Origin: a virus | Reading direction: 5' to 3' (one strand) | DNA length: 64,000 nucleotides | Virus record (IMG/VR): IMGVR_UViG_3300021962_000044 | Location: 32,001 to 96,000 of that record | Shown: positions 4,051-64,000 of the stretch, piece by piece | How positions within the stretch are numbered: the stretch's first letter is position 1 | Layout: the number at the start of each line of letters is the position of its first letter | Made by a program: the position numbers and the translations under genes | Notes under the pieces: model-generated | The model's database searches: none | The model's input: the letters and a program-made list of their open reading frames with translations, nothing else | Told to the model about the DNA's origin: nothing

Positions 4051-4082
4051 AAATAGATAAATATTAATAACAGGAGAAAAAA

Positions 4083-29010: not shown

Positions 29011-30900
29011 ATGAGAAATATTGTCATTATGCCGGGAGGCTTTCATCCCTTTCATGCAGGTCATGCCGCATTATATCAAAGTGCAGTAAAAGCATTTAAT
29101 GATGCTGACGTATATGTAGCCGCAACAAATGACACAAAAACAAGACCTTTTCCTTTTTCTGTTAAAGAGAAGTTAGCAAAGCTTGCAGGTGTTGCAGATA
29201 AACACTTTGTACAAGTTAAAAGTCCCTTTCAACCAAAAGAAATAACCGATCACTATAATCCGGAAGAAGATGTATTAATCTTTGTTCGTAGTGAAAAAGA
29301 TAGAAATGAAAGTCCTAAGCCGGGTGGTACAAAGAAAGATGGTACTCCAGCATATTTTCAACCCTGGACAGGTAAGAATCTACAACCATTTGGTAAACAA
29401 GCATATATTGCTTATCTACCTACAGTAGAGTTTGGTCCAGGAATTAGTAGTGCAACAGAGATACGTAATGCATGGCCTAACTTAGATGACCGTCGTAAAA
29501 CAGCAATGGTTATGAGTTTGTACCCGGTAACTCAAAAGAATCCTAAGCTTGCCGCTAATGTTGTTAAGATGTTAGATATGGGTATGGGTAATGAGTTAGA
29601 TGAGGGTATGGGTAAAGCATTGGGTACAGCCGCGTTAGCAGGTAGCCTAGCATTAGGTGGTTTATCTAGTATGGGTAAAACAGCAGTTACTAACTGGGAT
29701 AAATTACCACAACAAATGAGTACTCAACAAGATAGTAAAGGTGGTGAAAAGATTATGTCTGTAACTGGTCCTAACAATAAAGGTGAGTATCGTGTTAGAG
29801 TTACTACAGATAATGATGTACAAGAGTTTGTTACTAAAACTCCACCAAAGGCATTAAATGAATTTGCCCCACCGAGTAGTGACCGAGGTGACGGCGGAGA
29901 TAGTAGAAGTCGTAGAATAAGAAAACTATTAGAAATTGCTATACAAGTAGCAAAAGAAAAAAATATCGATGAATTGGGTATGATTCATGGTATGAATATG
30001 ATAGCAGGTGATGAATTTTTCAATACAGCAGTTGAAGGTATACTACCAGACATAACAGATAAAGAATATATGTTTGTGCTACAGAGTGCTTATAAAACAG
30101 TAAAGCAAGGTTTGGCAGAAGCAAAGAAAAAAAGAAAAAAGAAAAGTAAAAACCGTAGTCTTGGAAGATACTTCTTCCCGGGATATAGTTACTATGGCGG
30201 CGGTGGAGAATCTGGTGAGGGTGGAGGAGATGGTGGAAGTGAAGGTATGGCGGAAGGCTTCCCTCAACCAGGACCAAGTTCAGGTGCTCCAAAACAGTTC
30301 GGTGCTGATGCCCAAATACAAACTCGCCAAATGACGGTAAAAGATATTATATCATCTATACCCGGTGTGCCTTACTATAACAATGTAGTCGATGATTGGG
30401 ACGCTAAAGATTATAGTTGGGGCGTTACTAAAAAAGTTATAGAGTATGCTACTTACTTGAAGGATCATCCAGAAAGTTTAGCAAAGTTGCCACCGGCAAT
30501 AGTATTAAACGGTAAGTTTGAAGATGGCGCCCATAGAGTATCTGCCATATGGTTGCTACAACAAAGAATGGATCCTAAAAATCCATTGTGGAAAAATGTT
30601 AAATTAAATGTTCAATTTGTTAAGCAAGGTATGACGGAAGGCGAAGAAATTACTGAAGGACCTTTTGTTCAACGTCTTGGACGTCCTAATAAAGTTAATA
30701 TCTATGTGAGACATACTACAGGCAAACCCTCTTTGCTTATTGCAACTGATATTCCTTATTCAATATATGATAAGTTTATTGCAAAGGCTATGCAAAAATA
30801 TCCACAATTTAGGCAAACAGACTTTTCATTTAAATCTGCTGATAAACTTAAGGAAGAAACTAAATTGTCCGAAAGTGCTGATTACTTAGACGAAAATTAA
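29011..30900 (+). CDS. mosaic protein: HxGH nucleotidyltransferase-like N-terminus, small modules, ParB/Srx-like domain
   Basis: IMPGGFHPFHAGH and ISSATEIR; later PPAIVLNGKFEDGAHRVSA; junctions LDE, LNE, QGLAE, EGMAE, QGMTE, ITE. Confidence 0.65.
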   Translation: MRNIVIMPGGFHPFHAGHAALYQSAVKAFNDADVYVAATNDTKTRPFPFSVKEKLAKLAGVADKHFVQVKSPFQPKEITDHYNPEEDVLIFVRSEKDRNESPKPGGTKKDGTPAYFQPWTGKNLQPFGKQAYIAYLPTVEFGPGISSATEIRNAWPNLDDRRKTAMVMSLYPVTQKNPKLAANVVKMLDMGMGNELDEGMGKALGTAALAGSLALGGLSSMGKTAVTNWDKLPQQMSTQQDSKGGEKIMSVTGPNNKGEYRVRVTTDNDVQEFVTKTPPKALNEFAPPSSDRGDGGDSRSRRIRKLLEIAIQVAKEKNIDELGMIHGMNMIAGDEFFNTAVEGILPDITDKEYMFVLQSAYKTVKQGLAEAKKKRKKKSKNRSLGRYFFPGYSYYGGGGESGEGGGDGGSEGMAEGFPQPGPSSGAPKQFGADAQIQTRQMTVKDIISSIPGVPYYNNVVDDWDAKDYSWGVTKKVIEYATYLKDHPESLAKLPPAIVLNGKFEDGAHRVSAIWLLQQRMDPKNPLWKNVKLNVQFVKQGMTEGEEITEGPFVQRLGRPNKVNIYVRHTTGKPSLLIATDIPYSIYDKFIAKAMQKYPQFRQTDFSFKSADKLKEETKLSESADYLDEN

Positions 30901-30957
30901 AAATATTTTGACCCCCTTGTTTTGATGTAAATATTACTATCTTAACAAGAGGATCAA

Positions 30958-31947
30958 ATGGCAACTAAGAAAACAATCGAAAAGGTTACTGCTAAACCAG
31001 CAAAAGCCGCAACTAAAACTCCAGCAAAAGCACCGGTTAAAGCACCCGCTAAAGCTTCTAAAACAGCTAAAACAGTTCCTGTAGAAAAACTACAAGAAAT
31101 TGCTGATCAGGCTGCTAAAGAACCAGCTCAGGCAGCGGGCCCGGGTCAAGTTCAAGTTAACGTAGATTTTCTACGTACAACTAAAGTACATATTGCTATG
31201 CCATGTTATGGTGGTATGCTAACAGAATCAACATTCATGTCATTCATCAAGTGGGCAAATACAGCTCGTCAACTTGGTATTGATTGGACATTAGAAACAA
31301 TGGTTAATGAATCACTCATTAGCCGAGCAAGAAATACATTAACTGCTAAGTTTTTGGATATGCCAGACGCAACACATTTATTCTTTGTTGATGCTGACAT
31401 TGGTTGGGAGCCATGGCATCTACTAGTTCTACTGAACCGTGACGTTGATGTTATCGGTGGACTATATCCAATGAAGACAATGCCAATTAAATGGGTTGTT
31501 AATGGATTTGAAGGTGCTGAAGAAGGTACTGATGGATTACAAGAAGTATCTAAAGCAGGTACAGGTTTCTTGTTGATGAAGAAACATGTGTTTGAAAAGA
31601 TGAAGACTCATCCTGCAGTTAAACAGTATAAGAACGACATTGGATTAGATCCAAAGTTTGACCAGCACTTAAAAACGTATTTTGATACAGCGGTTCGTCA
31701 GAATCGTTACTATAGTGAAGATTGGACATTCTGTGAAAACTGGCGTGATATGGGCGGCCGCATCTGGGTTGACAAACGTGTATTGTTACGTCACTCAGGT
31801 AGTTATGTATTCTGTATGGAAAATCAGGAACATTTGATGAAAACGATCGGCCCTATGTATGTTGAAGAACAGGCTAAAAAGGCACAACCGGCAGCTCCGG
31901 CAGTTCTCCCGGATGCAACTGGTGTAGTATCAATAGCTACAACTTAA
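30958..31947 (+). CDS. GT-A fold glycosyltransferase-like protein with K/A/P-rich N-terminal extension
   Basis: IAMPCYGG, ESLISRARN, LFFVDADI (DxD), GTGFLL, SEDWTFC, L.HSG. Confidence 0.75.
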   Translation: MATKKTIEKVTAKPAKAATKTPAKAPVKAPAKASKTAKTVPVEKLQEIADQAAKEPAQAAGPGQVQVNVDFLRTTKVHIAMPCYGGMLTESTFMSFIKWANTARQLGIDWTLETMVNESLISRARNTLTAKFLDMPDATHLFFVDADIGWEPWHLLVLLNRDVDVIGGLYPMKTMPIKWVVNGFEGAEEGTDGLQEVSKAGTGFLLMKKHVFEKMKTHPAVKQYKNDIGLDPKFDQHLKTYFDTAVRQNRYYSEDWTFCENWRDMGGRIWVDKRVLLRHSGSYVFCMENQEHLMKTIGPMYVEEQAKKAQPAAPAVLPDATGVVSIATT

Positions 31948-31950
31948 TAC

Positions 31951-31971
31951 AAAGCCCCGAAAGGGGCTTTT
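31951..31971 (+). terminator. intrinsic terminator
   Basis: AAAGCCCC-GAAA-GGGGCTTTT. Confidence 0.85.
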
Positions 31972-31992
31972 ATCTTTTTAGATAAATACTCT

Positions 31993-33687
31993 ATGGACTT
32001 AAAAGAATTACATTCATTCAAAATGTCAGATGCTGTGACATTTCACGATAGCCTCAATCCTAAACTGTTTCGTGGACAACATCTACAACCTGAAGTAGAA
32101 TTACAATTAAAAACCATAGCACAAGACTTTTTACAAGAGATAGGTATACACGACTTAGATGTACGTGATATCACTATTTCTGGAAGTAATGCCGCCTATA
32201 GTTACACAGACCATAGTGATTTAGATTTACATATTTTAGTCAATATGAAGGATTTACCGGATGATGACATTTACCATGAATTCTTCAAAGCTAAAAAAGA
32301 TTTATACAATGACTCACATGATATTACTATCAACGGGATTCCAGTAGAATTATACATACAAGATGCGGCAGAACCTGTAACTAGTTTAGGTGAATATAGT
32401 GTTAAAGATAATAAATGGTTGCGAATGCCCGCAAAGCGTAGAGCAAACTTTGACCAAACAGCTACTAAGTCAAAATATATAAAACTATTAGATATTATTG
32501 ATACAACATTACAATCTGATAAAATAAGTAAAGTTAATAAAGTATTGAAAAAGATTAAACAATATCGTCAAGCTGGATTAGATAAAGGTGGTGAGTTTAG
32601 CCCTGAAAATCTAGCATATAAAGCATTACGTAGCCGTGGTTACATTACAAAGTTATATGACTTAAGAGACAGATTACATAGTAAGCATTTGAGTTTAAAT
32701 AACATGTATGCTAATGTAGATGAAGATTATGATCCAAATGGTATTCCTCCTGGACCAGAATTTAAGCCAACCATGCCAGCCGGTACTGTTAAAGTAGATG
32801 TAAGTGATACATATGATTGGTATAAGTTGGGACAACATATCAGTAATCTTGATGGATTGGGTAAACATGACTTTGGGCAAGGTCCTCCAAGTACTATAAT
32901 GGCATTTGGTAGTGAAGAGGCAGAACATAAGTATATTGATGCACTAAAGAAAACTGGTCTTACCACAACTGATATTGATCCGTTAGATCCTAATCAACCT
33001 AAAGGTATGAAGCGTCAAAAGACTGACCCTACATATAATGTAAATGAAGCTGTTACTGATAATTATCTATATCACGCTACTATGCCTGCAGGCATGATGC
33101 GTATATTGCGTACAGGTATAATTAAAGCAACTGATAGACCGCAACCATCTACTAAATCAAAAACACAATACCCTACAATTAGTACAACTAGATCAAAACA
33201 ATATGCAGAATCAAACGATTTTGTAGATTTCTTAAACTTAACCAACGACGGTAATGCAGTCATATTAGTATTTGATCGTGCCGCAGTCGCTAATCATTAC
33301 AAAATGTTTAGTACAAGTCAAGGTACACAGACAGTAGGTGACGAATATGAAGAAGTAATTGTTGCCCCCAAAGGAGCAATGCCGATCAAAGGAACCTTAA
33401 AGGGCTTCTATTTCAACCCTAGAAGCACAGAAGAAATAGAAGGATATAAAGATATACCTTGGTTCAACGAGTTATTGACCAGTCCATATTATATAGGACC
33501 AAAACAAGGTGTGGCGGAAGCATCAGGTTATATCCCTAGTGAAAAACAGAAGAATGACCCAAGATTTAGTACAGCATTAACAGTAGATATTAAGCCCGAC
33601 AGTATCAAAAAGAACGCAAAAGCATTCTATTGGAATACTAGTAGAGCAGGTATTCCTCCAACAGCAAAGCCATCAGGCAAAATCTAA
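31993..33687 (+). CDS. mosaic protein: Pol-beta-superfamily nucleotidyltransferase plus ADP-ribosyltransferase-like module
   Basis: ISGSNAAYSYTDHSDLDLHI (GS..DxD) and VELY; later YLYHAT..ISTTRS..LVFDR..EYEEVI between VNE and QGVAE. Confidence 0.65.
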   Translation: MDLKELHSFKMSDAVTFHDSLNPKLFRGQHLQPEVELQLKTIAQDFLQEIGIHDLDVRDITISGSNAAYSYTDHSDLDLHILVNMKDLPDDDIYHEFFKAKKDLYNDSHDITINGIPVELYIQDAAEPVTSLGEYSVKDNKWLRMPAKRRANFDQTATKSKYIKLLDIIDTTLQSDKISKVNKVLKKIKQYRQAGLDKGGEFSPENLAYKALRSRGYITKLYDLRDRLHSKHLSLNNMYANVDEDYDPNGIPPGPEFKPTMPAGTVKVDVSDTYDWYKLGQHISNLDGLGKHDFGQGPPSTIMAFGSEEAEHKYIDALKKTGLTTTDIDPLDPNQPKGMKRQKTDPTYNVNEAVTDNYLYHATMPAGMMRILRTGIIKATDRPQPSTKSKTQYPTISTTRSKQYAESNDFVDFLNLTNDGNAVILVFDRAAVANHYKMFSTSQGTQTVGDEYEEVIVAPKGAMPIKGTLKGFYFNPRSTEEIEGYKDIPWFNELLTSPYYIGPKQGVAEASGYIPSEKQKNDPRFSTALTVDIKPDSIKKNAKAFYWNTSRAGIPPTAKPSGKI

Positions 33688-33742
33688 TAAGTTTCCATAT
33701 TATGGTATTTTGATAAATACACTATTAGTATGGAAATCCGTT

Positions 33743-35026
33743 ATGAAAATCAAACAAATCACTGAAACTACAACAGCAGGTGCAATAGCTACTGTAAATT
33801 CACCATTAGGTGGCACACAAAGTAGAGGAAATCCTAGCATATATGGTGGCAAGAAAGTAGGAACTCTATTCAAGGGTAAAAAGACTAAAGCCCCATATGC
33901 TAATAGCATCAATGAAAGTGCTGAACTTAGTGAAGCACATTTAGAAGAAGATGATGTTATTGTTGTTCCAGGACAGGGTCGTAGTCGTAAAAACGGATTT
34001 GTTCCACATGGCCAAAGTCGTGTAGACCACGAAGTTGAAATGGCACGTAGTGATTTATTCAGTGCCGCAAAGAATGCTCAACAAGTCTTTTCAATGATTA
34101 AAGATGTTAGTGAAGATGAAGGTCTTGACGGTTGGGTACAAGAAAAGATTATTAAAGCCAATGATTATCTAAACACTATACGTGAATACCTAGAAGGTAA
34201 GCAAGTTCAAGGTGTAACGGAAAACAATCAAAGAGTTGATTCACTTGTCACAGACTCATTAAAAATAATGCGTGGTCCAGAAGTAAATGATGCAGTCAAA
34301 GCAATAAAGACTGTGCTAGGAGAAAGAGAATACAATAGCCGTCGCGGTTATTATAGTTTCTATGTTCGACAACTAATGGATATGCATGGTCAAGAAGGTT
34401 TAACGGAAGGCTTACACCCAATGATTATTGATGATGTTAAAAAATTAGCAACGTTGAGTCCTACTGACAGATATAGTGCTTATTCTAATATTCGTGGTTA
34501 CTTCAAGGCCGACCCAGCGTTGAGCAAGATGGCGTCAGATTTAATGGGAGGATACTACGAAGCAGACATGCTTAGAGGCAAGTATAAAACAGCCGAAGCA
34601 AAAGCCAAGTATGCTGAATTAGAACCAATGCATCAGGCATTTATTAAACAATCACTAGGTCAAGAGCAAGGTGTAACGGAAGGCTCCAGAAACGCATATT
34701 TGAAGCACAACAATTTAATTGATTTAGAAAAACCACTTGCCGGATTAAAGGACGAGTTTAATAAGTTTTTGCGAACCCACGATCCTGAAGAAAAACAAAA
34801 ATTCCAACAAGGTATCAAACAAAGAATAAAGACACGCCCAATGGCGGGACCTAAAGGCGTATTACCAGAGCAAGGTATATCAGAAGGCGCTAAAGTTGAC
34901 CGTATGGTTAAGCACATTGAAAAGTCAGAAGAAAAATCTGGCAAGAGTAAAAAAGAAGCTGAAAACATTGCTTGGGCAACTGCTAACAAACGTGGCATGT
35001 TAAATAACAAGAATAAGAAAGCGTAA
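33743..35026 (+). CDS. mosaic putative head-packaged protein (leader MKIKQITE)
   Basis: In-frame ATG 33743 downstream of TAAATA 33714-33719; four (Q/E)G(V/L/I)(T/S)E junctions. Confidence 0.65.
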   Translation: MKIKQITETTTAGAIATVNSPLGGTQSRGNPSIYGGKKVGTLFKGKKTKAPYANSINESAELSEAHLEEDDVIVVPGQGRSRKNGFVPHGQSRVDHEVEMARSDLFSAAKNAQQVFSMIKDVSEDEGLDGWVQEKIIKANDYLNTIREYLEGKQVQGVTENNQRVDSLVTDSLKIMRGPEVNDAVKAIKTVLGEREYNSRRGYYSFYVRQLMDMHGQEGLTEGLHPMIIDDVKKLATLSPTDRYSAYSNIRGYFKADPALSKMASDLMGGYYEADMLRGKYKTAEAKAKYAELEPMHQAFIKQSLGQEQGVTEGSRNAYLKHNNLIDLEKPLAGLKDEFNKFLRTHDPEEKQKFQQGIKQRIKTRPMAGPKGVLPEQGISEGAKVDRMVKHIEKSEEKSGKSKKEAENIAWATANKRGMLNNKNKKA

Positions 35027-35027
35027 T

Positions 35028-38000
35028 ATGAGCAATATTCTTAAAGGTATAATAAACGAAGTTAGTCCACATAACTATGATAGTGATTGGGATTATCAAG
35101 ATGCAGTAGCACGTAGTGGTAAATCACGTTCTAGCTATCGTTCACAAGAAGATGATACTTTTGACTCTGATGTTGCATATTCCAGAAAGATGTATCAATT
35201 GGGACAACAACAAAAGGCTGCAAAAGAAAAAGCACAACGTGATAGTGACCATGATAGATTGGCAAGTGGTACAAATGAAGATATAACTGAAGCCTCTAAT
35301 CCTTATGAACCAGTAATGATTCAAGGTTATGATAAGTGGCTTAAGTTAGTTAGTATTCCTAATGTTGATAGACATGCTTATAAAAGTGATATAACAGCAG
35401 TTACTTCCTTAGGTGATGTGATTGGTGAATTTAATACAGATAAAGATTTAGGATACGTTATTAAAAAATATGCTAAAGGTGTTAGTGAGAGTTTAGATGA
35501 TCCATGGGGAGATCAAGGTAACTTTGCAGGTGATAAGCCAGTTAATCTTGGTGGTGTCTCTATTAAGAATATACAAGTGGGTGATACTGTTAAGTATTTT
35601 GGACAACCTTCAAAAGTAGTTGCTATGAGTAAGGATCGTAAATATTCTCGCATCACAATTTCTAAAGGCATGGGTACTGTTACACAAGATGTATTAACAC
35701 GTGACTTACAACAATTAGGCCAGGGCAAAGCAATAGAAGAAAATGATAATATTCAAACTAGAATGCGAATGGATGATTATTATAAATTGGCAGATGCTAT
35801 TCAGGAAAAACTTAGACAAGCAATTAAACTAGGTGATAACGAACTTGTACATAAATTATCCAAAGAACGTGCTGACTTAGATGCACGTGTTAAAAAATAT
35901 GGATTGATACCAGAATCACAACTAGATGAAATCTCTAATGAAAAGTTAGCACAATACAAAACAGCTGCCGCATTAGATGCAGGCAAAGCTGATAAAGAAG
36001 GTGATTATAAACGTGGCGATAAACGTTTCAGTGGTATTGTTAAAGCAACTAAGAAACAGTTTGCTAATGATACAAAGAAATCTGGTATCAGTCAAGGTAT
36101 AAATGAATTTGCCCCCATTAAACCCCCTACTGCCGGGGCATTTGGTGGTAATAAAGATTACGGACAACCAAATAGTTCACGCTATATAGGTGGTAACAAG
36201 TTTGTAGTAGGTACTACTAACAATTATGTATTGACCGCTACAATAGACAAATGGGGATTAGAATGGGATGAGGATGACGAGATATGGTTCTTAGACAGTC
36301 CCGGTGCCGCACATATTGCTGATGCTAGTGAAGGTGAAATAGAACTACCTCCACCCCGTGAACAAAGAAATCAAATACATGATTTAGTAACTGATTATCT
36401 TAATGAAAGAAATTCTGCTGATTTACAAAAGGTAGCCGCATATTATGGTCACAGTAATGATGGCGAAATGGCAACAAATGAAAGTTCAGAAGCACCTAGA
36501 TTTAACAGTAAACAAGAAGTTATTAATCACTTTGTTAAAAACGGCAAAAGTGCGGCAGCAGGTGCAGCGGCATGGGAACGTGGTTATAGAGGTTCATCTA
36601 AGAAACCAATAGAGTTAAAAAAACCACCACAAAGAAGTTACCATGATGAACTAGATGATAAACGTTATTCAAATACATTTGAAAACTTAGGTGATCAATT
36701 GAAATCTAATTCATTAAACGCACTAGTTCAAGCCAAATTAGCTATAGAGCAACAACGTCAAGCTGAAATAGAAGCTTGGAAAAGAGATTTTGAAAAGAAT
36801 ACAGTACAAAAAGCACAACAAGGTTTACGTAGAGAATTTGAACCAACTCCAGTTGCACAGCCTGGCGAGAAGCATTCTGTATTGAAAGCTAGGTTAGCAC
36901 AATTAAATAATGCTATACAGAAGCAAGAACTAGTAGATAAGTTAGTTGATAGATTAGAGCGTAAGGGTTTAATGACTCCTGCAATGCAAAACGATACTGA
37001 TACAAGAATGCATGTTAAGTATGGTGCAAAAGATAACTATCAATCTTTAAATAAAAAATTAGACAATGCTATTCAAATGTTACAGAATAGATTAAATATC
37101 CGTAAAATTTCTGGATTAAAAGAAGGTCATGATGAGCGTGATGAATATGATAATCCTAGAATGGGTAGAGATTACGGCAAAGGCAATCTATTTGTAGATC
37201 CTGGTTCAAATGAATTTAAAAAAGAAGTACATATAGGTAGCAATGACGGCGAACGTGGCAGACCAAAAAATCTAAAGGGTGTTTCAAAAGTATTACCAGC
37301 TGATGCATTTGGCCGTACTACAGGTAAGATACCAGATAGTGCAAGACCAACATCAAAAGAAGATCCTTTTAAAGACGTTGATGAAGACCTAGACGAAAAT
37401 CTACATAAGTGGTTTCAAGAAAAGTGGGTACGATTTGGACCTGATGGTAAGATCCGTGGTGATTGCGCTAGAGGTGATGATAGTGAAGGTAAACCAAAAT
37501 GCTTACCACAAAGTAAAGCACAGAATTTAGGCAAAGCAGGTCGTGCTAGTGCGGCAAGTCGTAAGCGTAGAGAAGATCCTAATCCAGAACGCAGTGGTAA
37601 GGCTATCAATGTTGCTACTAAGAAAAAGAGTAACGAAGGTGTGGCGGAAGACCAACTTGATGAATTAAGTTGCTGGTCTGGTTATCATAGAGTCGCTGGC
37701 ACCAAAGCAGGCTTTCCAGGTAGTTGTGCTAAAAATAAAACAAACGAAGAAGCAGTTGATGAAGCTGATATGAACCGTAGAGGATTCTTAAAAGGTATGG
37801 GTGCGGCGGCTGTGGCAGGTAGCGCATTAGTTAATCCTATTGTTGCTAAAGCGCAAGATTCAACATCTGCTAGAGGAATAACAAAATCTGATTTACAAAA
37901 AAAATTCCCTAATAGTTTAGATATTAAAGCGACAGGAACAAGACCACCCTCTATTATAACGGATTTAGGTTTATCATCCGGTAAAAATTTAGAATTGGAA

Positions 38001-39365
38001 GTAAAGACTACCGATTTATTGGGTAATGCATCGTTAGGATATATTGAATTTATAAATGATATAATGGTTGGTCAATTTTATATCACTGATAAATCAAACT
38101 TACCAAAAATTTCAGCGTTTACTAAAAAGCCAGAAATTATTGAGTATTTTAAAAATATAGCCACACGAATATTAGGCACGGGTAAATTAGGTTCTGTTCA
38201 AGGAAAAATCTCACTAGACAAAGTAAATACGGATCAGGGAGTGGGAGCCGGAGTGATGAAAGGACTCTTTGAAATTAGTTATGATACAATTAATATTAAT
38301 GTAGAAACATCAAATGGATCAATTAACCTATTAGTCGGTGCCTATGAAAGTGGAAACTACTTTGTTATAAGTTTAATAACTGCAATAAAAAAACAACAAA
38401 ATAATTTAACACTTGACGAATTCAACAAAAAAGTTGTGGCGGAAGAACAACATAGTTGCCCACATTGCGGTGGCGAGATGGTTAGTGAAGAACTAATGAA
38501 TGAAAAGAAAGATGCTTGCTACTATAAAGTAAAGAGTCGTTATAAAGTATGGCCAAGTGCTTATGCATCTGGTGCGTTAGTTAAGTGTCGTAAGAGTGGT
38601 GCTGATAGTTGGGGAAACAGCGGTAAGAAAAACGAAAGCATTGAAGAAGGCTGGCAAGATGAAGCACAAGAGTTAGAGGACTGGTCAAAAGAAGTCAATA
38701 AGAAATTGTATAGAGCGCATGAAACTCAGCGTCCTGGACTAGCAAGACAACTAAGCAAACTAGAACAAAAACATTTTGGTAGTAGTCTAAATCAAGGATC
38801 ACTTACAGAAATAGTTAAGGCAGCATTGATGGCATTACAAAAAGGTCAAATGGTTCACTATGATCCACAACAAGTAGGTCAAATGCCATTTGGTAACATA
38901 GTAGGCGATGAAGCTAAACTTATTGCAAAATATAATATAACCCGTGACGAACTTGCTGGTTACCGTATGTTACACGATAAAAATATGGTAGATAATCTTG
39001 AACAATTTTTAAAGTTACGCCGTTTGGTACGTGCAAAGTCATGGCCTCTAGAGTATTATGAAGAACTAGAGAAGTTAACACCGGAAGAAGCATGGTTAAA
39101 AATGGCCGATGATTTGAATTGGTCCAAAGATGACATGAATGAAGAAATTCAATCTAAAACAGATGATAAGTTATTAGCATACTACGCACAGCGTAAGGCT
39201 GAAAAACAAAAACAACAAAGTCAACCACAAGACCAACTTGATGAAAAGTGGACTAAGAAATACAAAGATAGCATCAACTGTAGTAATCCAAAAGGATTTA
39301 GTCAAAAAGCACATTGTGCCGGTAAACAGAAAAATGAAAGTGCTATTATGAAAGGTCTTAAATAA
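35028..39365 (+). CDS. 1445-aa mosaic putative polyprotein with an internal Tat-signal module
   Basis: Leader MSNILKGIINE; more than 15 short modules bounded by xxE motifs; MNRRGFLKG..AKA at 37770-37853; small Cys-containing basic modules. Confidence 0.7.
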   Translation: MSNILKGIINEVSPHNYDSDWDYQDAVARSGKSRSSYRSQEDDTFDSDVAYSRKMYQLGQQQKAAKEKAQRDSDHDRLASGTNEDITEASNPYEPVMIQGYDKWLKLVSIPNVDRHAYKSDITAVTSLGDVIGEFNTDKDLGYVIKKYAKGVSESLDDPWGDQGNFAGDKPVNLGGVSIKNIQVGDTVKYFGQPSKVVAMSKDRKYSRITISKGMGTVTQDVLTRDLQQLGQGKAIEENDNIQTRMRMDDYYKLADAIQEKLRQAIKLGDNELVHKLSKERADLDARVKKYGLIPESQLDEISNEKLAQYKTAAALDAGKADKEGDYKRGDKRFSGIVKATKKQFANDTKKSGISQGINEFAPIKPPTAGAFGGNKDYGQPNSSRYIGGNKFVVGTTNNYVLTATIDKWGLEWDEDDEIWFLDSPGAAHIADASEGEIELPPPREQRNQIHDLVTDYLNERNSADLQKVAAYYGHSNDGEMATNESSEAPRFNSKQEVINHFVKNGKSAAAGAAAWERGYRGSSKKPIELKKPPQRSYHDELDDKRYSNTFENLGDQLKSNSLNALVQAKLAIEQQRQAEIEAWKRDFEKNTVQKAQQGLRREFEPTPVAQPGEKHSVLKARLAQLNNAIQKQELVDKLVDRLERKGLMTPAMQNDTDTRMHVKYGAKDNYQSLNKKLDNAIQMLQNRLNIRKISGLKEGHDERDEYDNPRMGRDYGKGNLFVDPGSNEFKKEVHIGSNDGERGRPKNLKGVSKVLPADAFGRTTGKIPDSARPTSKEDPFKDVDEDLDENLHKWFQEKWVRFGPDGKIRGDCARGDDSEGKPKCLPQSKAQNLGKAGRASAASRKRREDPNPERSGKAINVATKKKSNEGVAEDQLDELSCWSGYHRVAGTKAGFPGSCAKNKTNEEAVDEADMNRRGFLKGMGAAAVAGSALVNPIVAKAQDSTSARGITKSDLQKKFPNSLDIKATGTRPPSIITDLGLSSGKNLELEVKTTDLLGNASLGYIEFINDIMVGQFYITDKSNLPKISAFTKKPEIIEYFKNIATRILGTGKLGSVQGKISLDKVNTDQGVGAGVMKGLFEISYDTININVETSNGSINLLVGAYESGNYFVISLITAIKKQQNNLTLDEFNKKVVAEEQHSCPHCGGEMVSEELMNEKKDACYYKVKSRYKVWPSAYASGALVKCRKSGADSWGNSGKKNESIEEGWQDEAQELEDWSKEVNKKLYRAHETQRPGLARQLSKLEQKHFGSSLNQGSLTEIVKAALMALQKGQMVHYDPQQVGQMPFGNIVGDEAKLIAKYNITRDELAGYRMLHDKNMVDNLEQFLKLRRLVRAKSWPLEYYEELEKLTPEEAWLKMADDLNWSKDDMNEEIQSKTDDKLLAYYAQRKAEKQKQQSQPQDQLDEKWTKKYKDSINCSNPKGFSQKAHCAGKQKNESAIMKGLK

Positions 39366-39411: not shown

Positions 39412-40011
39412 CTAATCAAAAATTATTCTCCAACCCTTATAAGAGGTCTCGTTTTTTCGGATGAGACCTCTTAATCCTTTAGTACTAATAGAGTATTTTA
39501 TAGCAAATTCATATGAGGTACTGTATACTCTTTCTAGAGTATTGATGTTCTCAAAGCAATAGACTGTTTTATTAAATCTAGTATTATTAGTTCCGGCTTT
39601 GGATCGTTTTGTGAATTTTGAAGCATATTCATTTGATATTAATCTGCCGCGCACCCAACCTTCTGGAATATCTCCACGAATTTTCTTATTAATAATACCA
39701 TTGTTAATCCAAATAGTGCCATACATTGGATTATTCTCACCGGTATTCGATAATTTTGCGAGATAAGATTTTTCTTCAGGAGAGACTTTCATTCTCTGAG
39801 ACATGATTAAACATGCTTTGTAATCCCCTTGTGATTTATGTATTTCGTAATGTTCTTTGATGGAAACACATAGTAAATTTGATATTTCATTATTATTGTG
39901 ATTTCCATCAATATGATGAATTTCATAACTGCGACCATCTTCATCTTTAGGAATGGGCCCTATAAATGTTTCGTAAATCTTACGATGATCCGTGGTTGAA
40001 TAAATACTCAT
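39412..40011 (-). CDS. free-standing HNH homing endonuclease; probable start ATG 40011
   Basis: YEIHHIDGNHNNNEISNL.C.S..EH; GENNPMYG and WINNG..GWVRGR DNA-binding motifs; opposite strand to neighbours; SD AAGGAG. Confidence 0.88.
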   Translation of the reverse strand: MSIYSTTDHRKIYETFIGPIPKDEDGRSYEIHHIDGNHNNNEISNLLCVSIKEHYEIHKSQGDYKACLIMSQRMKVSPEEKSYLAKLSNTGENNPMYGTIWINNGIINKKIRGDIPEGWVRGRLISNEYASKFTKRSKAGTNNTRFNKTVYCFENINTLERVYSTSYEFAIKYSISTKGLRGLIRKNETSYKGWRIIFD

Positions 40012-40111
40012 GCTGGTGCTCCTTTTTAGCATTAGAGTAGTTGGGCCTGCCAGCCGCGAACTACACTTTTATTTATCATAAGTTTAGATAAATATATGAA
40101 TAAGGATTAAT

Positions 40112-59776: not shown

Positions 59777-60603
59777 AAAAGATTTTAATTACTGGTTGTT
59801 CAGGATACATAGGTTCACATCTATCTAAGATGTTAGCTAATGATTATGAAGTTTATGGTTTAGATATTGATGAACCACAGGCACCACTTAATGAGTTTTA
59901 TCGCTGTGATATCAATAGACAATTTGCTATCCCAGGTGATATAGAATATGATTGTGTAATTCATTTAGCGGCATTAGTACGTGTGGGTGAGAGTGAACAA
60001 ATACCTATCAAGTACTATATCACTAACTTAAATGGTACAATGAATGTAGTTAATAAAATAAAGACAAAGAACTTTATCTTTGCTAGTACAGGCGCCGCAC
60101 AAGATTGTTCTAGTGCTTATGGTATCAGCAAGCGAGCCGCTGAAGATGTAGTTAGAGAATATTGTACAAAACATAAACAACAAGATTATACTATCTTTAG
60201 ATTCTATAACGTTATCGGAAGTGATGGTTATGAACCAACCAACCCTGATGGTTTAATGTACAAACTAATGGAAGCACGTGATACAGGCGTATTTACTATA
60301 TATGGTAATGATTATGATGTATCACCTGACGGTACTTGTGTACGTGACTATGTTCATGTTAATGAAATATGTGATGCAATAAAACAAGCTATTGAGAAGC
60401 CTAGTAATAGTGTTGAATGTCTAGGACATGGTGTAGGATATACGGTACAAGATATTGTTGATTTATTTCAAAAAGTAAATAATTGTGACTTTACAGTAAA
60501 ATACGGCACTAGAAGAAAGGGTGATTTACCTAGTAGTGTACTAGCCAATGTGTCACCTTATATGCGTAATCTTTACTCTATGGAAGAGTTATTGAAAGTT
60601 TAA
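59773..60603 (+). CDS. NAD-dependent epimerase/dehydratase (GalE-like)
   Basis: ILITGCSGYIGSHL, HLAA, YGISK, RFYNV.G, DGTCVRDYVHV, RRKGD. Confidence 0.92.
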   Translation: MKKILITGCSGYIGSHLSKMLANDYEVYGLDIDEPQAPLNEFYRCDINRQFAIPGDIEYDCVIHLAALVRVGESEQIPIKYYITNLNGTMNVVNKIKTKNFIFASTGAAQDCSSAYGISKRAAEDVVREYCTKHKQQDYTIFRFYNVIGSDGYEPTNPDGLMYKLMEARDTGVFTIYGNDYDVSPDGTCVRDYVHVNEICDAIKQAIEKPSNSVECLGHGVGYTVQDIVDLFQKVNNCDFTVKYGTRRKGDLPSSVLANVSPYMRNLYSMEELLKV

Positions 60604-62126
60604 GCTAAATGTGTCATTAAGGTATTCATTTGTTGAACACCACCTTTTGATAACTGAAATCCTTTTTGGTCTGCACGTTTGATTCGTTGGTCATAACTAG
60701 GATGTGAGCTATTGGGAAGTTTAGTTATACTATTATAAAAGTCGTAATCAGATTGTTTTTGGTGCAAGAACTTAAACATCTCAACTTTGTTGTAACCTAA
60801 AGCCCTACATAACTTAATAGCAAAGTCGTCAGCATCCATTTCTTCCCGACGTGCTTTCCCGGGATCAGGCTGAAAACCGTGTCCTAGGGCAATGTGTCCC
60901 AGTTCATGTGCAATAGCAAATGCCAGTGTAGAATCAGGAGCATCCCAAAACACAGTTAGGTCAAGACTGACATTACGAGTATCAGCATTTCCTTGAACCC
61001 ACTGGTCATTCGACGTAACAAGAACTTTTGTCCCCTGCAGTCTTTGTGCCCATTCTGGTCCGGCGGCTCGCATTAACTTACCCAGCATACCATTACTGCG
61101 TTGTTGCAGTTGTTCAAATCTAGGCATCCAAACGTCAGGTTGTTTTTTTATAGTTTCTAAATCTTGATATTCACCTGCTTTAGCTAAACCAGTAGCACCT
61201 AATGCGGCAGCACCTGCTGCACCTTTAAGCAGGTCTCTACGACTAATAGCTTCAGCTAATTCATTGTTCGTTTTTACAATAGGTGGAACCCAGTTGTATA
61301 GTTCTCTTGGACCGCCGGATTCATTGTGGTAATAATTTGCTTTAAACGGACCATCAAATTTAATAACGTTTTGAACTTCTTTTGGATTACCACCTGTTAA
61401 TCTCTTAAATGCATCTATTGCTTTTTCTTTTGTCAAACCAGCCTTATTAAACTCACCGGTATCACCAATAGGCAAGATTAAGCCATCAGGTGTAGCACTC
61501 CATAATGTATATCCATCTGGATTGTCTCTCCTTGCTACGATTTGAACTTCATTTGGCTTATAGTAATGTTTACTATTCAATGGTGGTTTAGCTAACTTAC
61601 GTGAGAACGTTCCCTTATTAGTAGGATCATCTTTCATAGCAGTTAATTCTAAGCCACTATCACTAATCAATTTTAATAGACCTTCTGGAACTTTATTCAT
61701 TAACTCTTTGCGTATCTGAATGCCCACAACATATGGTTTCTTAACAGGGATCCCTATACCTCTCGGATGATAGATACGTTCTTCTGTTTCTTGTTTATAC
61801 ATTGGGTTACTAGCTGTTGGACCCGTACCATCAGGTTGATTATAGAATTGCATATAAGAGAATGGCATTACTTTGAATCCAGCTTGACGTAATGCATTTC
61901 TATCTAGTACAAGTTGAATACTGCCGCCGCCATACGGGAATCTATAATATTGATTTCTACTTGCGCTGATTACTGGTATCTCCCAACCACCTTCTTCATC
62001 TGTATCAGATAAGTGTGGTTGTATCACACCTTTTCTGAGTATGTTCCAGATTTGATTAGGTTGTGATACACTATGATAAACATAGTCTCCGCCTACGGCT
62101 TCTGATAAAAATTCACTTGCTCTCAT
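60600..62126 (-). CDS. mosaic protein (leader MRASEFLSE): ART-like module, internal Tat signal, M48-type zinc peptidase
   Basis: YVYHSV..ISASRN..LVLDR..ETEERI; LAE|AISRRDLLKGAAGAAALGATGLAKA; LAFAIAHELGH..EMDAD..SSHPS..RI. Confidence 0.75.
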   Translation of the reverse strand: MRASEFLSEAVGGDYVYHSVSQPNQIWNILRKGVIQPHLSDTDEEGGWEIPVISASRNQYYRFPYGGGSIQLVLDRNALRQAGFKVMPFSYMQFYNQPDGTGPTASNPMYKQETEERIYHPRGIGIPVKKPYVVGIQIRKELMNKVPEGLLKLISDSGLELTAMKDDPTNKGTFSRKLAKPPLNSKHYYKPNEVQIVARRDNPDGYTLWSATPDGLILPIGDTGEFNKAGLTKEKAIDAFKRLTGGNPKEVQNVIKFDGPFKANYYHNESGGPRELYNWVPPIVKTNNELAEAISRRDLLKGAAGAAALGATGLAKAGEYQDLETIKKQPDVWMPRFEQLQQRSNGMLGKLMRAAGPEWAQRLQGTKVLVTSNDQWVQGNADTRNVSLDLTVFWDAPDSTLAFAIAHELGHIALGHGFQPDPGKARREEMDADDFAIKLCRALGYNKVEMFKFLHQKQSDYDFYNSITKLPNSSHPSYDQRIKRADQKGFQLSKGGVQQMNTLMTHLA

Positions 62127-64000
62127 TAGTGTTTCAATAATAGTGTTGACAATACATCTTGTCTATTAGCACTGATATCACCCTCACCCGGGGCAATAAT
62201 AACATTCCATTTCTTAATGTTATTCTTTTGAGGAGTAGCCATCATCTCATTGTAATCAATGATAGTATCACGTTTTAAGTTATATTGTTGTGCTAATCTG
62301 TCTTTTAATTCGTCTAATGCTGCCGCATCTTTTGGTTGCCATGCACCATCAGCAGTCTTATCTAACTTACCGGTCTCATCTTTCTTTAATAAGTCATAAA
62401 ATAACTTACTAGGAACAATACGACTATTTTTTGTAACATCTAATTGCGGGTCTTGTTGTTTAACTTGTTTTTCTTGACTAGTACTTGCACCTTCACTCCA
62501 GTTAACAATAAAGTTACTTGGCTTTTGACCTAATGCCGCATCTGCTATTTTTGTATAAGCATAGAACTTAACATCAGGATGAGAGGCAGCTAACTTAAAT
62601 GCTAAATCCATATATTCTGGGCTAAAGAAATCACCAGCATCATGCCAACGAATAGTTAGATTGTAACCACCTTTTTGTGCTGATTTTTCTTCTTTTGTAA
62701 TTTCATTACTTAATTGATTGAAGAAACCATCTGGATCATTCAATAAGAAAGTTAGTATTCTTCCGTCGCTTAACCATGGCCCTTCAAACTGAACCTTACC
62801 GCCCTTCATAGCAAAACAATCCACTTTACATGAGCCGGCACCTGGACATGTATTAACTACTATAAGTTCGTTTGTACCTTCATCTAATGCGATACCAACT
62901 AATGCGGCAAAGCCAATGTTATAAAATTGTTCTAGTTCACCATTAGAATGTTTCATCTTCTCATTTTGTTTAAGAAGTTTCTTTGGGCGAACACCTAATG
63001 CTGTTTTGATTTGGTCTGTATCGTAGCGTTTACCTTCTTCATTGTAGTATTTGACTACACTTGAGCGATGTATGTAAGGTAGTTTATATTTGTCTGTTTT
63101 ACCCTTTTCACGATTACGAATTCTATCTAAGTAATCTTCTAGTTCTTGACCTTTTAGTTCACGTGTTTGTGCTGGGAGTTTTGTTGCTTCATTTACACCT
63201 TGTTTTTTTATTAATGAAATAATATTACTAATACCATTTAATGAAATATCCCTCTCGGATGTAGTTCCAAATTTACCAGTTGGGTTTTGCCATGTAAATT
63301 TCACTGTTAAAACATTTGAATTAGCAATTTTATCAAGGGCATGGGTTAAATCTACTCTACCCCTATTAGAAATAGTTACAGGAATGGTTTTAATAGTATT
63401 GGTATTATTATTCAACATATACTTGAATTCAGTATTTGGCTGAAAATTATAGTCATGTCCTAACTTAAATGTTAACCGTAAACCACCATAATTTATCCAA
63501 TGAAGAAAAAGGTCATTAGTATTATTAGATGCCATAATTTCTTTATCTTTTTTATCAAATTTTGATGTTCTAATAGTTACGCTCCATTCACCAATATTTT
63601 CAGTTGTAGTATTTGATAAAGCTTCACCGGCTGCGCCCGTTGCGGCTGCCGCGCCCATACCTTTTAAGAACCCTCTACGGCTAATGTCAGCTTCATTCAC
63701 ACCGTGTTGTTTATGTTGTGTAGATGGTTTACCACGTTTATCACTATCAGGGAACATTATAGACATACTTTTACCATAAGCCTGATCAATTGTTTTAGGA
63801 TCTATTTTAGATTTATCAGTTCTAGCCTTATGTGTAAACTGTGCTAATTGTTCAGGGGACATTTTATCTAATTCTTCGGAAGACATTTCATCTATTTTTT
63901 CTTCCGGTTCATCACCTGATTGAGCAAGGAATTGATCCATACTCATAACTTTGATGCCACCTACAGCACCCGGTAATTTGGGTGTCGCACCCTCAAATAA
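62126..64000 (-). CDS. mosaic protein, 5' end outside the window: internal Tat-signal module plus Cys-rich GP88/radical-SAM-like domain
   Basis: Frame stays open to the window edge (LFEGATPKLPGAVGGIKV-MSMDQ); VNE|ADISRRGFLKG; TCPGAGSCKVDCFA..IRWHDAGDF..FYAYTK. Confidence 0.7.
   Translation of the reverse strand, partial: LFEGATPKLPGAVGGIKVMSMDQFLAQSGDEPEEKIDEMSSEELDKMSPEQLAQFTHKARTDKSKIDPKTIDQAYGKSMSIMFPDSDKRGKPSTQHKQHGVNEADISRRGFLKGMGAAAATGAAGEALSNTTTENIGEWSVTIRTSKFDKKDKEIMASNNTNDLFLHWINYGGLRLTFKLGHDYNFQPNTEFKYMLNNNTNTIKTIPVTISNRGRVDLTHALDKIANSNVLTVKFTWQNPTGKFGTTSERDISLNGISNIISLIKKQGVNEATKLPAQTRELKGQELEDYLDRIRNREKGKTDKYKLPYIHRSSVVKYYNEEGKRYDTDQIKTALGVRPKKLLKQNEKMKHSNGELEQFYNIGFAALVGIALDEGTNELIVVNTCPGAGSCKVDCFAMKGGKVQFEGPWLSDGRILTFLLNDPDGFFNQLSNEITKEEKSAQKGGYNLTIRWHDAGDFFSPEYMDLAFKLAASHPDVKFYAYTKIADAALGQKPSNFIVNWSEGASTSQEKQVKQQDPQLDVTKNSRIVPSKLFYDLLKKDETGKLDKTADGAWQPKDAAALDELKDRLAQQYNLKRDTIIDYNEMMATPQKNNIKKWNVIIAPGEGDISANRQDVLSTLLLKH

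Follow-up and report, generated by a model that had tools for sequence, protein, structure and literature searches.

Why does one short DNA word, spelled partly with rare codons, recur in frame between the protein modules of neighbouring phage genes? The question is raised by a 64,000-nucleotide (nt) stretch of viral DNA (the window; positions 32,001 to 96,000 of the IMG/VR record IMGVR_UViG_3300021962_000044), which is part of a 111,075-bp viral contig with a CheckV completeness of ~32%. The word forms linkers within four adjacent open reading frames (ORFs; 29011–39365, plus strand), here termed cargo polyproteins 1 to 4. We lean towards the explanation that the linker is a protease site which also acts as in-frame microhomology for general recombination, and that the system is not integron-like.

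The tail sheath encoded by the contig was 1191 amino acids (aa) long and showed ~45% identity to the sheaths of Atu_ph07, Phosso, and PA5oct, which this protein places closest among cultured phages. The contig also encodes a family B DNA polymerase, a clamp loader, a ClpB-like ATPase, and PhoH, and together these genes point to a giant myovirus of the T4-related jumbo group as the source. Presence of the phage could be detected in marine, estuary, and freshwater metagenome runs; these runs consisted of assembled contigs, and contig joints were taken solely as the presence of a variant. A megablast search of the 10-kb region and a tblastn search of polyprotein 3 against cultured phages returned no match.

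Linker copies in the window and their codon usage

Eight in-frame copies at module boundaries had been noticed from the letters of the window (hereafter the sequence-only reading), and these could be confirmed. The pattern AAGGTNTNRCGGAA had seven exact matches in the window, all on the plus strand (30242, 30626, 33506, 34209, 34395, 34668, and 37636), against an expected count of 0.01, and none of 100 shuffles reached seven; no further copy was present anywhere in the whole 111,075-bp contig. The eighth site, a near copy at 38430, was as described. All eight are in frame, are spread over the four ORFs and not confined to one, and encode the peptide [Q/E/K]-[G/V]-[V/M/L]-[A/T]-E.

Given as whole codons on the plus strand, the copies read GAA GGT ATG GCG GAA GGC (30241–30258; E-G-M-A-E-G), CAA GGT ATG ACG GAA GGC (30625–30642), CAA GGT GTG GCG GAA GCA (33505–33522), CAA GGT GTA ACG GAA AAC (34208–34225), GAA GGT TTA ACG GAA GGC (34394–34411), CAA GGT GTA ACG GAA GGC (34667–34684), and GAA GGT GTG GCG GAA GAC (37635–37652), with the near copy AAA GTT GTG GCG GAA GAA at 38430–38447. 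Their deviations from CAAGGTGTGGCGGAAGGC, an 18-nt word (Q-G-V-A-E-G) that is widespread in related phages, are mostly G-to-A changes (GTG to ATG or GTA; GCG to ACG), and by their letters the window copies appear to be a local, partly decayed dialect of that word. Three weaker copies had also been proposed, and here the peptide and the spelling have to be separated. CAA GGT TTG GCA GAA GCA (30106–30123, plus strand), CAA GGT ATA TCA GAA GGC (34871–34888, plus strand), and Q-G-V-N-E-A near 63190 (63185–63202, minus strand, in the cargo-like ORF 62126–63946) do belong to the same peptide class, but they are written with ordinary codons (TTG GCA, ATA TCA, and GTA AAT within GGT GTA AAT GAA, respectively). 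A degenerate linker, AAA GGT GTT AGT GAG AGT (K-G-V-S-E-S), lies at 35475–35492 on the plus strand.

Codon usage was computed over 121 ORFs of the contig, and it bore out the claim that NCG before GAA is unusual. GCG accounted for 6% of Ala, ACG for 4% of Thr, and GTG for 9% of Val codons, while Gly was encoded by GGT in 58% and by GGC in 14% of cases and the share of GAA was 81%. All eight linker sites carry GCG or ACG before GAA, and the probability of eight NCG codons was ~3e-11 under overall usage and ~1e-9 when usage before G-starting codons was applied. The contig holds four in-frame ACG-GAA pairs, every one of them inside the linker motif. Out of 12 in-frame RCG-GAA pairs, nine were linker copies, namely the eight sites above and S-V-A-E-G, which lies on the minus strand just past the window end. 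A remark that one flanked module is GC-rich did not hold, as 34411–34683 had 40.7% GC compared to 35.5% (standard deviation 3.7%) for 256-nt windows, which is within the normal spread.

The word in related phages

A scan with polyprotein 3 retrieved 67 loci related to it, among them complete genomes of 352 and 524 kb. In these loci, in-frame G-[VMLI]-[ATS]-E carried NCG in 120 of 185 cases, compared to 3% for other [ATS]-E pairs. A position matrix of the linkers revealed a sharply bounded 18-nt consensus, CAA GGT GTG GCG GAA GGC, with unconserved flanks. At unique Q-G-V-A-E sites (n = 60), GTG was used in 52 and GCG in 55, against backgrounds of 9% and 7%. Other linker classes (Q-L-D/E-E and h-N-E-F) were spelled with ordinary codons, which restricts the unusual DNA spelling to the G-V-A-E word.

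The exact word CAAGGTGTGGCGGAAGGC was present in at least 120 IMG/VR contigs, while its synonym in the commonest codons was present in 12. In those contigs, 153 of 154 copies were in frame within long ORFs, and the spacing from linker to linker had a median of 273 nt, with 158 of 164 intervals divisible by 3. The same 18-nt word recurred up to 11 times in a single gene. In the complete relatives, its copies were restricted to one to three gene clusters, so it is not a genome-wide signal.

These figures bear on an account at the protein level only, by which Q-G-V-A-E-G is a preferred protease site or flexible linker, surviving rearrangements respect domain borders, and the spelling hitch-hikes from a few ancestral copies with no role for the DNA. 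The spelling is hard to reconcile with it: ~80% of Q-G-V-A-E sites read GTG-GCG, compared to 0.6% expected, although these sites lie within unrelated flanks and in phages that share 40–50% protein identity. We consider this account improbable, and evidence on its side is taken up with the breakpoints below.

A signal in RNA or translation was also weighed. The word could make the ribosome pause (Shine-Dalgarno-like AAGG followed by the rare codons GTG, GCG, and GGC) and so help modules to fold or be cleaved, or an RNA-binding protein could attach to it. In favour of this, three of the six codons are rare, and the AAGG on the 5' side of the linker resembles the core of the ribosome-binding sites in this phage (TAAGG, AAGGA, and AGGAG were enriched upstream of starts); this likeness leaves GCG and GGC unexplained. 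GCG was found 107 times at the motif in the 67 loci and GCC not once, which disfavours the idea that any rare codon will do and argues for one specific spelling. Four linkers with their flanks folded no better than shuffles (z −0.6 to 1.3), the linkers matched no Rfam family, and there were no conserved flanks. A pause at the linker itself would also come too early, since the upstream module is then still inside the ribosome. Such a signal is judged to be quite improbable.

Breakpoints at the linkers

The sequence-only reading had expected that breakpoints of module gain, loss, and swap in relatives would fall on the motif, and this was what could be observed. When the window was aligned with its relatives, homology ended at linkers both in protein and in DNA. 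At ten linker positions, homology stopped in 196 of 205 locus comparisons, compared to 13% at control positions, and the ends of high-scoring segment pairs were enriched 9-fold within 10 nt of a linker. Homology stopped in 25 loci and ran through in 1 at the copy at 33505; the corresponding counts were 22 and 5 at 34208, where the partners spell ACA, ACT, or TCA instead of ACG, 17 and 0 at 34394, 36 and 0 at 34871, 40 and 0 at 37635, and 39 and 0 at 38430. The degenerate linker at 35475 was likewise a homology boundary, with a contig joint from 35280 to 35491. Among relatives, 170 unique indels of at least 60 nt were collected; 134 of them kept the frame, and the longest direct repeats flanking them were mostly the word.

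An unbiased boundary scan of the four ORFs produced 16 peaks, and all 16 were located at [LIVM]-x-E. Eight were of the G-V-A/T/S-E kind, and the other eight included L-D-E, L-N-E, V-N-E, I-T-E, V-D-E, and I-E-E. An example of another linker class is Q-L-D-E followed by K at 39229–39246 (plus strand), spelled with ordinary codons, where homology stopped in 30 loci and ran through in 1 and a contig joint connects 38638 to 39229. Boundaries similar to this class lie near 29596, 29845, 33046, 35274, 37383, 37749, and 38628.

A direct sign of crossover was found in polyprotein 1. From the copy at 30106 to that at 30625, the relatives L021 and L015 lack 519 nt, and a single joint takes the place of both copies: up to its middle it matches the 30106 copy together with the sequence to its left, and from there on the 30625 copy together with the sequence to its right. 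A matching 519-nt skip was present as a contig joint from 30099 to 30619 in an independent metagenome. Because the L021/L015 joint is a chimera of two window linkers, at least one crossover took place inside the word.

Exchange of modules could also be seen at short evolutionary distance. Strain L004 has 99.6% identity to the window over most of the region, yet it carries a different linker and different modules from the copy at 34871 (linker 34872) onward, and its module between the linkers at 37636 (left edge) and 38431 (right edge) is replaced. One metagenome run contained a contig joint from 34874 to 37761, and joints from 37748/37752 to 38456 were present in three runs from three studies. 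In L004, at position 4073, a 124-nt deletion relative to window 34440–34563 falls within a module, away from the linker, and puts the polyprotein 3 homologue out of frame. Genuine pseudogenisation would account for it, as would a misassembly.

When the ORFs were split at the linkers and clustered, the modules were mostly unrelated to one another. From phage to phage, one and the same module family turned up in other genes and at other positions, and the modules on the two sides of a linker assorted independently among relatives. Since the modules are unrelated and module families change gene and position, the recurrence of the word cannot be put down to tandem duplication of a single unit.

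Several points weigh against a crossover role for the DNA word or against the protease-site part of the reading. Eight of the 16 mapped boundaries are other hydrophobic-x-Glu linkers with ordinary codons, so the word is not required for a module boundary, and a single clear chimera within the word was dissected. The L004 and window alleles carry differing linkers at 34872 and no linker at 38431; as they do not share the word at both edges, swaps of the L004 type may have crossed over in flanking homology. The end of homology marks the edge of an old rearrangement and not necessarily the crossover point, and many of the related loci are near-duplicates, such that locus counts like 196 of 205 exceed the number of independent events. 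A length of 18 bp is short for RecA-type exchange. Neither a Peptidase_S77 nor a Gp23 capsid gene was found in the window's own contig, which is ~32% complete.

Some of the same observations speak for the account at the protein level only. Ordinary-codon hydrophobic-x-Glu linkers are equally sharp boundaries, the linkers differ between alleles in the L004 swaps, and selection alone would also leave frame-keeping indels (134 of 170), whereas the L021/L015 joint, which falls inside the word, is evidence in the other direction.

Fate of the spelling at shared junctions

To follow single junctions, 183 junction pairs were anchored by protein alignment with at least 25 residues on each side; DNA alignments spanning the linker with 45 nt on both sides numbered nine, too few for a rate test. 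At shared junctions with 50–70% flank identity, hydrophobic-x-Glu was retained in 65% of partners and the core GTGGCGGAR in 8 of 54, while 63% of identical flank residues in the same comparison retained their codon. The partner linkers read Q-S-V-V-E-G, Q-D-M-Y-E-G, Q-G-M-N-E-G, and similar peptides. At a fixed junction the word thus disappears more quickly than ordinary silent sites are altered, although it is the prevailing spelling overall.

The proposal of the sequence-only reading that synonymous positions are held was therefore right in one respect and wrong in another. The spelling is conserved far beyond codon usage, but it is not kept site by site, as at shared junctions the word is lost sooner than the synonymous codons in its flanks. 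Because the word is not conserved at shared junctions, it would be copied by recombination and not kept by selection on each copy. For the same reason, neither a signal in RNA or translation nor purifying selection acting on every copy fits, and vertical descent of each junction cannot yield the shared spelling, since shared junctions lose it quickly. The pattern fits copying, in which new joints are built from existing joints and later decay under the loose constraint of a protease site.

Recombination machinery

The sequence-only reading had compared the arrangement to integron cassettes and had suggested looking for a recombinase elsewhere in the genome. A dedicated site-specific system would consist of a recombinase or homing nuclease that recognises the word and moves cassettes, either integron-like or nuclease-driven. 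Identical, oriented sites do flank the cassettes on both sides, and a gene resembling an HNH homing endonuclease is located at 39412–40032 (minus strand), directly after the cargo cluster. Profile searches of the contig and of the two complete relatives (352 and 524 kb) revealed no tyrosine or serine recombinase (PF00589, PF00239), the site is neither an inverted repeat nor a hairpin, and the units are in-frame pieces of ORFs, not promoterless genes. Among the loci compared, the HNH gene was found solely in the window strain, its near-twin L004, and L049, in the last at a different place; the gene is not linked to the cargo loci and was dismissed as their driver. We regard a dedicated system as very improbable, and the integron-like mechanism was not upheld.

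Both complete relatives encode a RecA/UvsX homologue. Under the favoured explanation, a protease-site linker that doubles as microhomology, the word, which joins unrelated modules in frame within a cargo polyprotein gene cluster of uncultured T4-related giant myoviruses, would be the place at which modules are joined, deleted, duplicated, and swapped. The machinery would be general recombination or replication, such as RecA/UvsX-type strand exchange, annealing, or template switching. The uniform spelling would come from young joints copied off existing joints, and neither selection on each copy nor a dedicated site-specific recombinase would be needed. At the protein level, the linker peptide would be cut after Glu by a gp21-type prohead protease, freeing small proteins in the head that are probably delivered with the DNA.

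A more far-reaching version may be put forward tentatively. The 18-nt word could be an evolved, recombinase-free in-frame cassette joint, a head-protease cut site and crossover point at once, which lets giant phages reshuffle an injected arsenal fast and is uniform because the lineages or cassettes that retain it keep exchanging modules. We hold this version to be plausible but somewhat doubtful.

Predicted head processing of the polyproteins

In both complete relatives, which carry the linker, a Peptidase_S77 (gp21-type) gene was located beside a scaffold-like gene and a Gp23-type capsid gene. The capsid protein of these relatives contains L-A-E ~40 residues before a conserved G-V-Q-P-M, a region which we take to be where T4 gp23 is cut. 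The earlier suggestion that the motif is a protease linker is supported in part: its hydrophobic-x-Glu form fits a gp21-type site and the protease gene is present in the complete relatives, but it is absent from the partial contig of the window. Proteases of the gp21 family cleave after Glu (PMC5694885). The linker peptide may thus be a cut site of a gp21-type prohead protease, and we infer that inside the head the polyproteins are probably split into small proteins, which would probably be delivered together with the DNA.

No N-terminal leader was shared among the four polyproteins. In polyprotein 3, the stretch T-T-T-A-G-A-I-A-T-V-N (window 33764–33800, residues ~19–30) occurs right after I-T-E, and the capsid protein of the 352-kb relative (L073) has T-T-T-A-G-N-I-A-T-L-N a short distance behind the L-A-E at which maturation is predicted. 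The likeness between the polyprotein 3 N-terminus and the mature capsid N-terminus is weak (E 0.006 in a one-on-one BLAST), and the stretch may be a targeting or co-assembly mimic. Beside the protease gene of the complete relatives, a very acidic protein of 262–276 aa (L071/L072) contains several G-M-x-E sites (A-G-M-S-E-G, E-G-M-G-E-E, and Q-G-M-V-E-A); a role in the core or scaffold, with cleavage at this kind of site, is possible.

Modules of the cargo polyproteins

Polyprotein 1 (29011–30900, plus strand, 629 aa) has an N-terminal cytidylyltransferase-like domain (PF01467, E 7.8e-6) followed by three linker-separated modules. Polyprotein 2 (31993–33687, plus strand, 564 aa) starts with a nucleotidyltransferase-like domain, continues with a second region, and ends in a 55-aa tail module behind a linker; the domain assignment is based on phrog_36119 and on matches to annotated nucleotidyltransferases in cyanophages. 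Polyprotein 3 (33710–35026, plus strand, 438 aa) carries a conserved N-terminal module and four small modules with three strong linkers and one weak linker. Polyprotein 4 (35028–39365, plus strand, 1445 aa) contains many modules, several of which are stand-alone small genes in cyanomyoviruses. Several unrelated effector-type domains (cytidylyltransferase-like, nucleotidyltransferase-like, and the cyanophage stand-alone modules) are combined in one phage polypeptide. Most modules of the four ORFs were without a known family in Pfam and PHROG scans, and the same scans of the four polyproteins did not reveal any peptidase family.

A stretch resembling an internal twin-arginine signal was seen in polyprotein 4 (37752–37853), with N-R-R-G-F-L-K-G and an Ala/Gly-rich run after V-D-E; its Pfam TAT_signal match was weak (E 0.0025). 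In strain L004, such a stretch occurs directly after linkers at two places.

The single-module ORF between polyproteins 1 and 2 (30958–31947) had homologues in cultured phages that were mostly annotated as hypothetical proteins, none of them as a virion protein, and among the sequences searched there was no cultured relative with homologues annotated as virion proteins. Within this ORF, the summed contig depth over 31082–31775 was several-fold to more than 10-fold above most neighbouring bins in four metagenomes; the region may be common to other, more abundant phages.

Two more multi-module ORFs lie on the minus strand, at 60600–63946 and beyond the window end (contig 96362), with the linkers Q-G-V-N-E and S-V-A-E-G. 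One of them had a metalloprotease-like match (phrog_87). They are probably a second cargo cluster.

Comparison with known systems

No published description of a linker fixed at the nucleotide level was found in the literature. What is new here is the chimera within the word, the decay at shared junctions, the control scan with the common-codon synonym, and the finding that all boundaries are hydrophobic-x-Glu with half of them carrying the word. If the word is indeed a protease site and crossover point, it would offer a simple route to combinatorial protein arsenals without a dedicated recombinase. It would also mean that abundant aquatic giant phages hold a large, fast-turning pool of probably injected proteins, which would be candidate anti-defence or host-takeover factors. 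The exact word can serve as a search handle for cargo genes in metagenomes, and the linker as a natural design rule for processed polyproteins. The loss of the word at shared junctions recasts fixed silent sites as a question of turnover versus selection.

The internal proteins of T4 are diverse, are processed by gp21, and are conserved solely in a short leader (PMC3012670). IPI, IPII, IPIII, and Alt resemble the present case, as represented by the two complete relatives, in the T4-type head module and in a gp21-family protease cutting after Glu (PMC3012670, PMC5694885). They too are diverse, fast-changing small head proteins delivered with the DNA, a location and delivery that are predicted from sequence for the polyproteins described here. 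The T4 proteins are encoded by separate genes, each with an N-terminal leader, whereas here unrelated modules are fused by an internal repeated linker.

Polyvalent proteins (Iyer et al. 2017, PMC5512222) contain many unrelated conflict-type domains, for example nucleotidyltransferases; their delivery together with the DNA and their proteolytic release are predicted. They are alike in combining several unrelated domains in one phage polypeptide. They differ in usually having their own peptidase domain (zincin-like MPTase), whereas none was found in the four polyproteins; processing here would therefore be in trans, by the head protease. The word 'linker' is absent from the text of PMC5512222, and no mention of a linker conserved at the nucleotide level was found in it.

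Integron attC arrays share the arrangement of exchangeable units split by a recurrent oriented site; in contrast, the present contig and the two complete relatives lack an integrase, the site forms no hairpin, and what is exchanged are in-frame parts of an ORF instead of whole genes. In polymorphic toxins (the VENN motif of CdiA, the end of the Rhs core), a conserved peptide and DNA motif marks the homologous exchange of variable modules. In those cassettes each gene has a single junction, and the toxin is C-terminal and paired with a cognate immunity gene, while the cargo genes have serial junctions and no immunity partners. A parallel to a crossover role may be found in T-even phages, where Tetart and colleagues in 1998 and Repoila and colleagues in 1994 are said to have described motif-mediated exchange in tail-fibre genes (His boxes) and a variable internal protein locus. 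There, short conserved borders of non-homologous segments reportedly act as crossover points for general recombination with no dedicated recombinase. The present system differs in that one 18-nt word is used, up to 11 times per gene and in at least 120 contigs, and that the same word also encodes a probable protease site.

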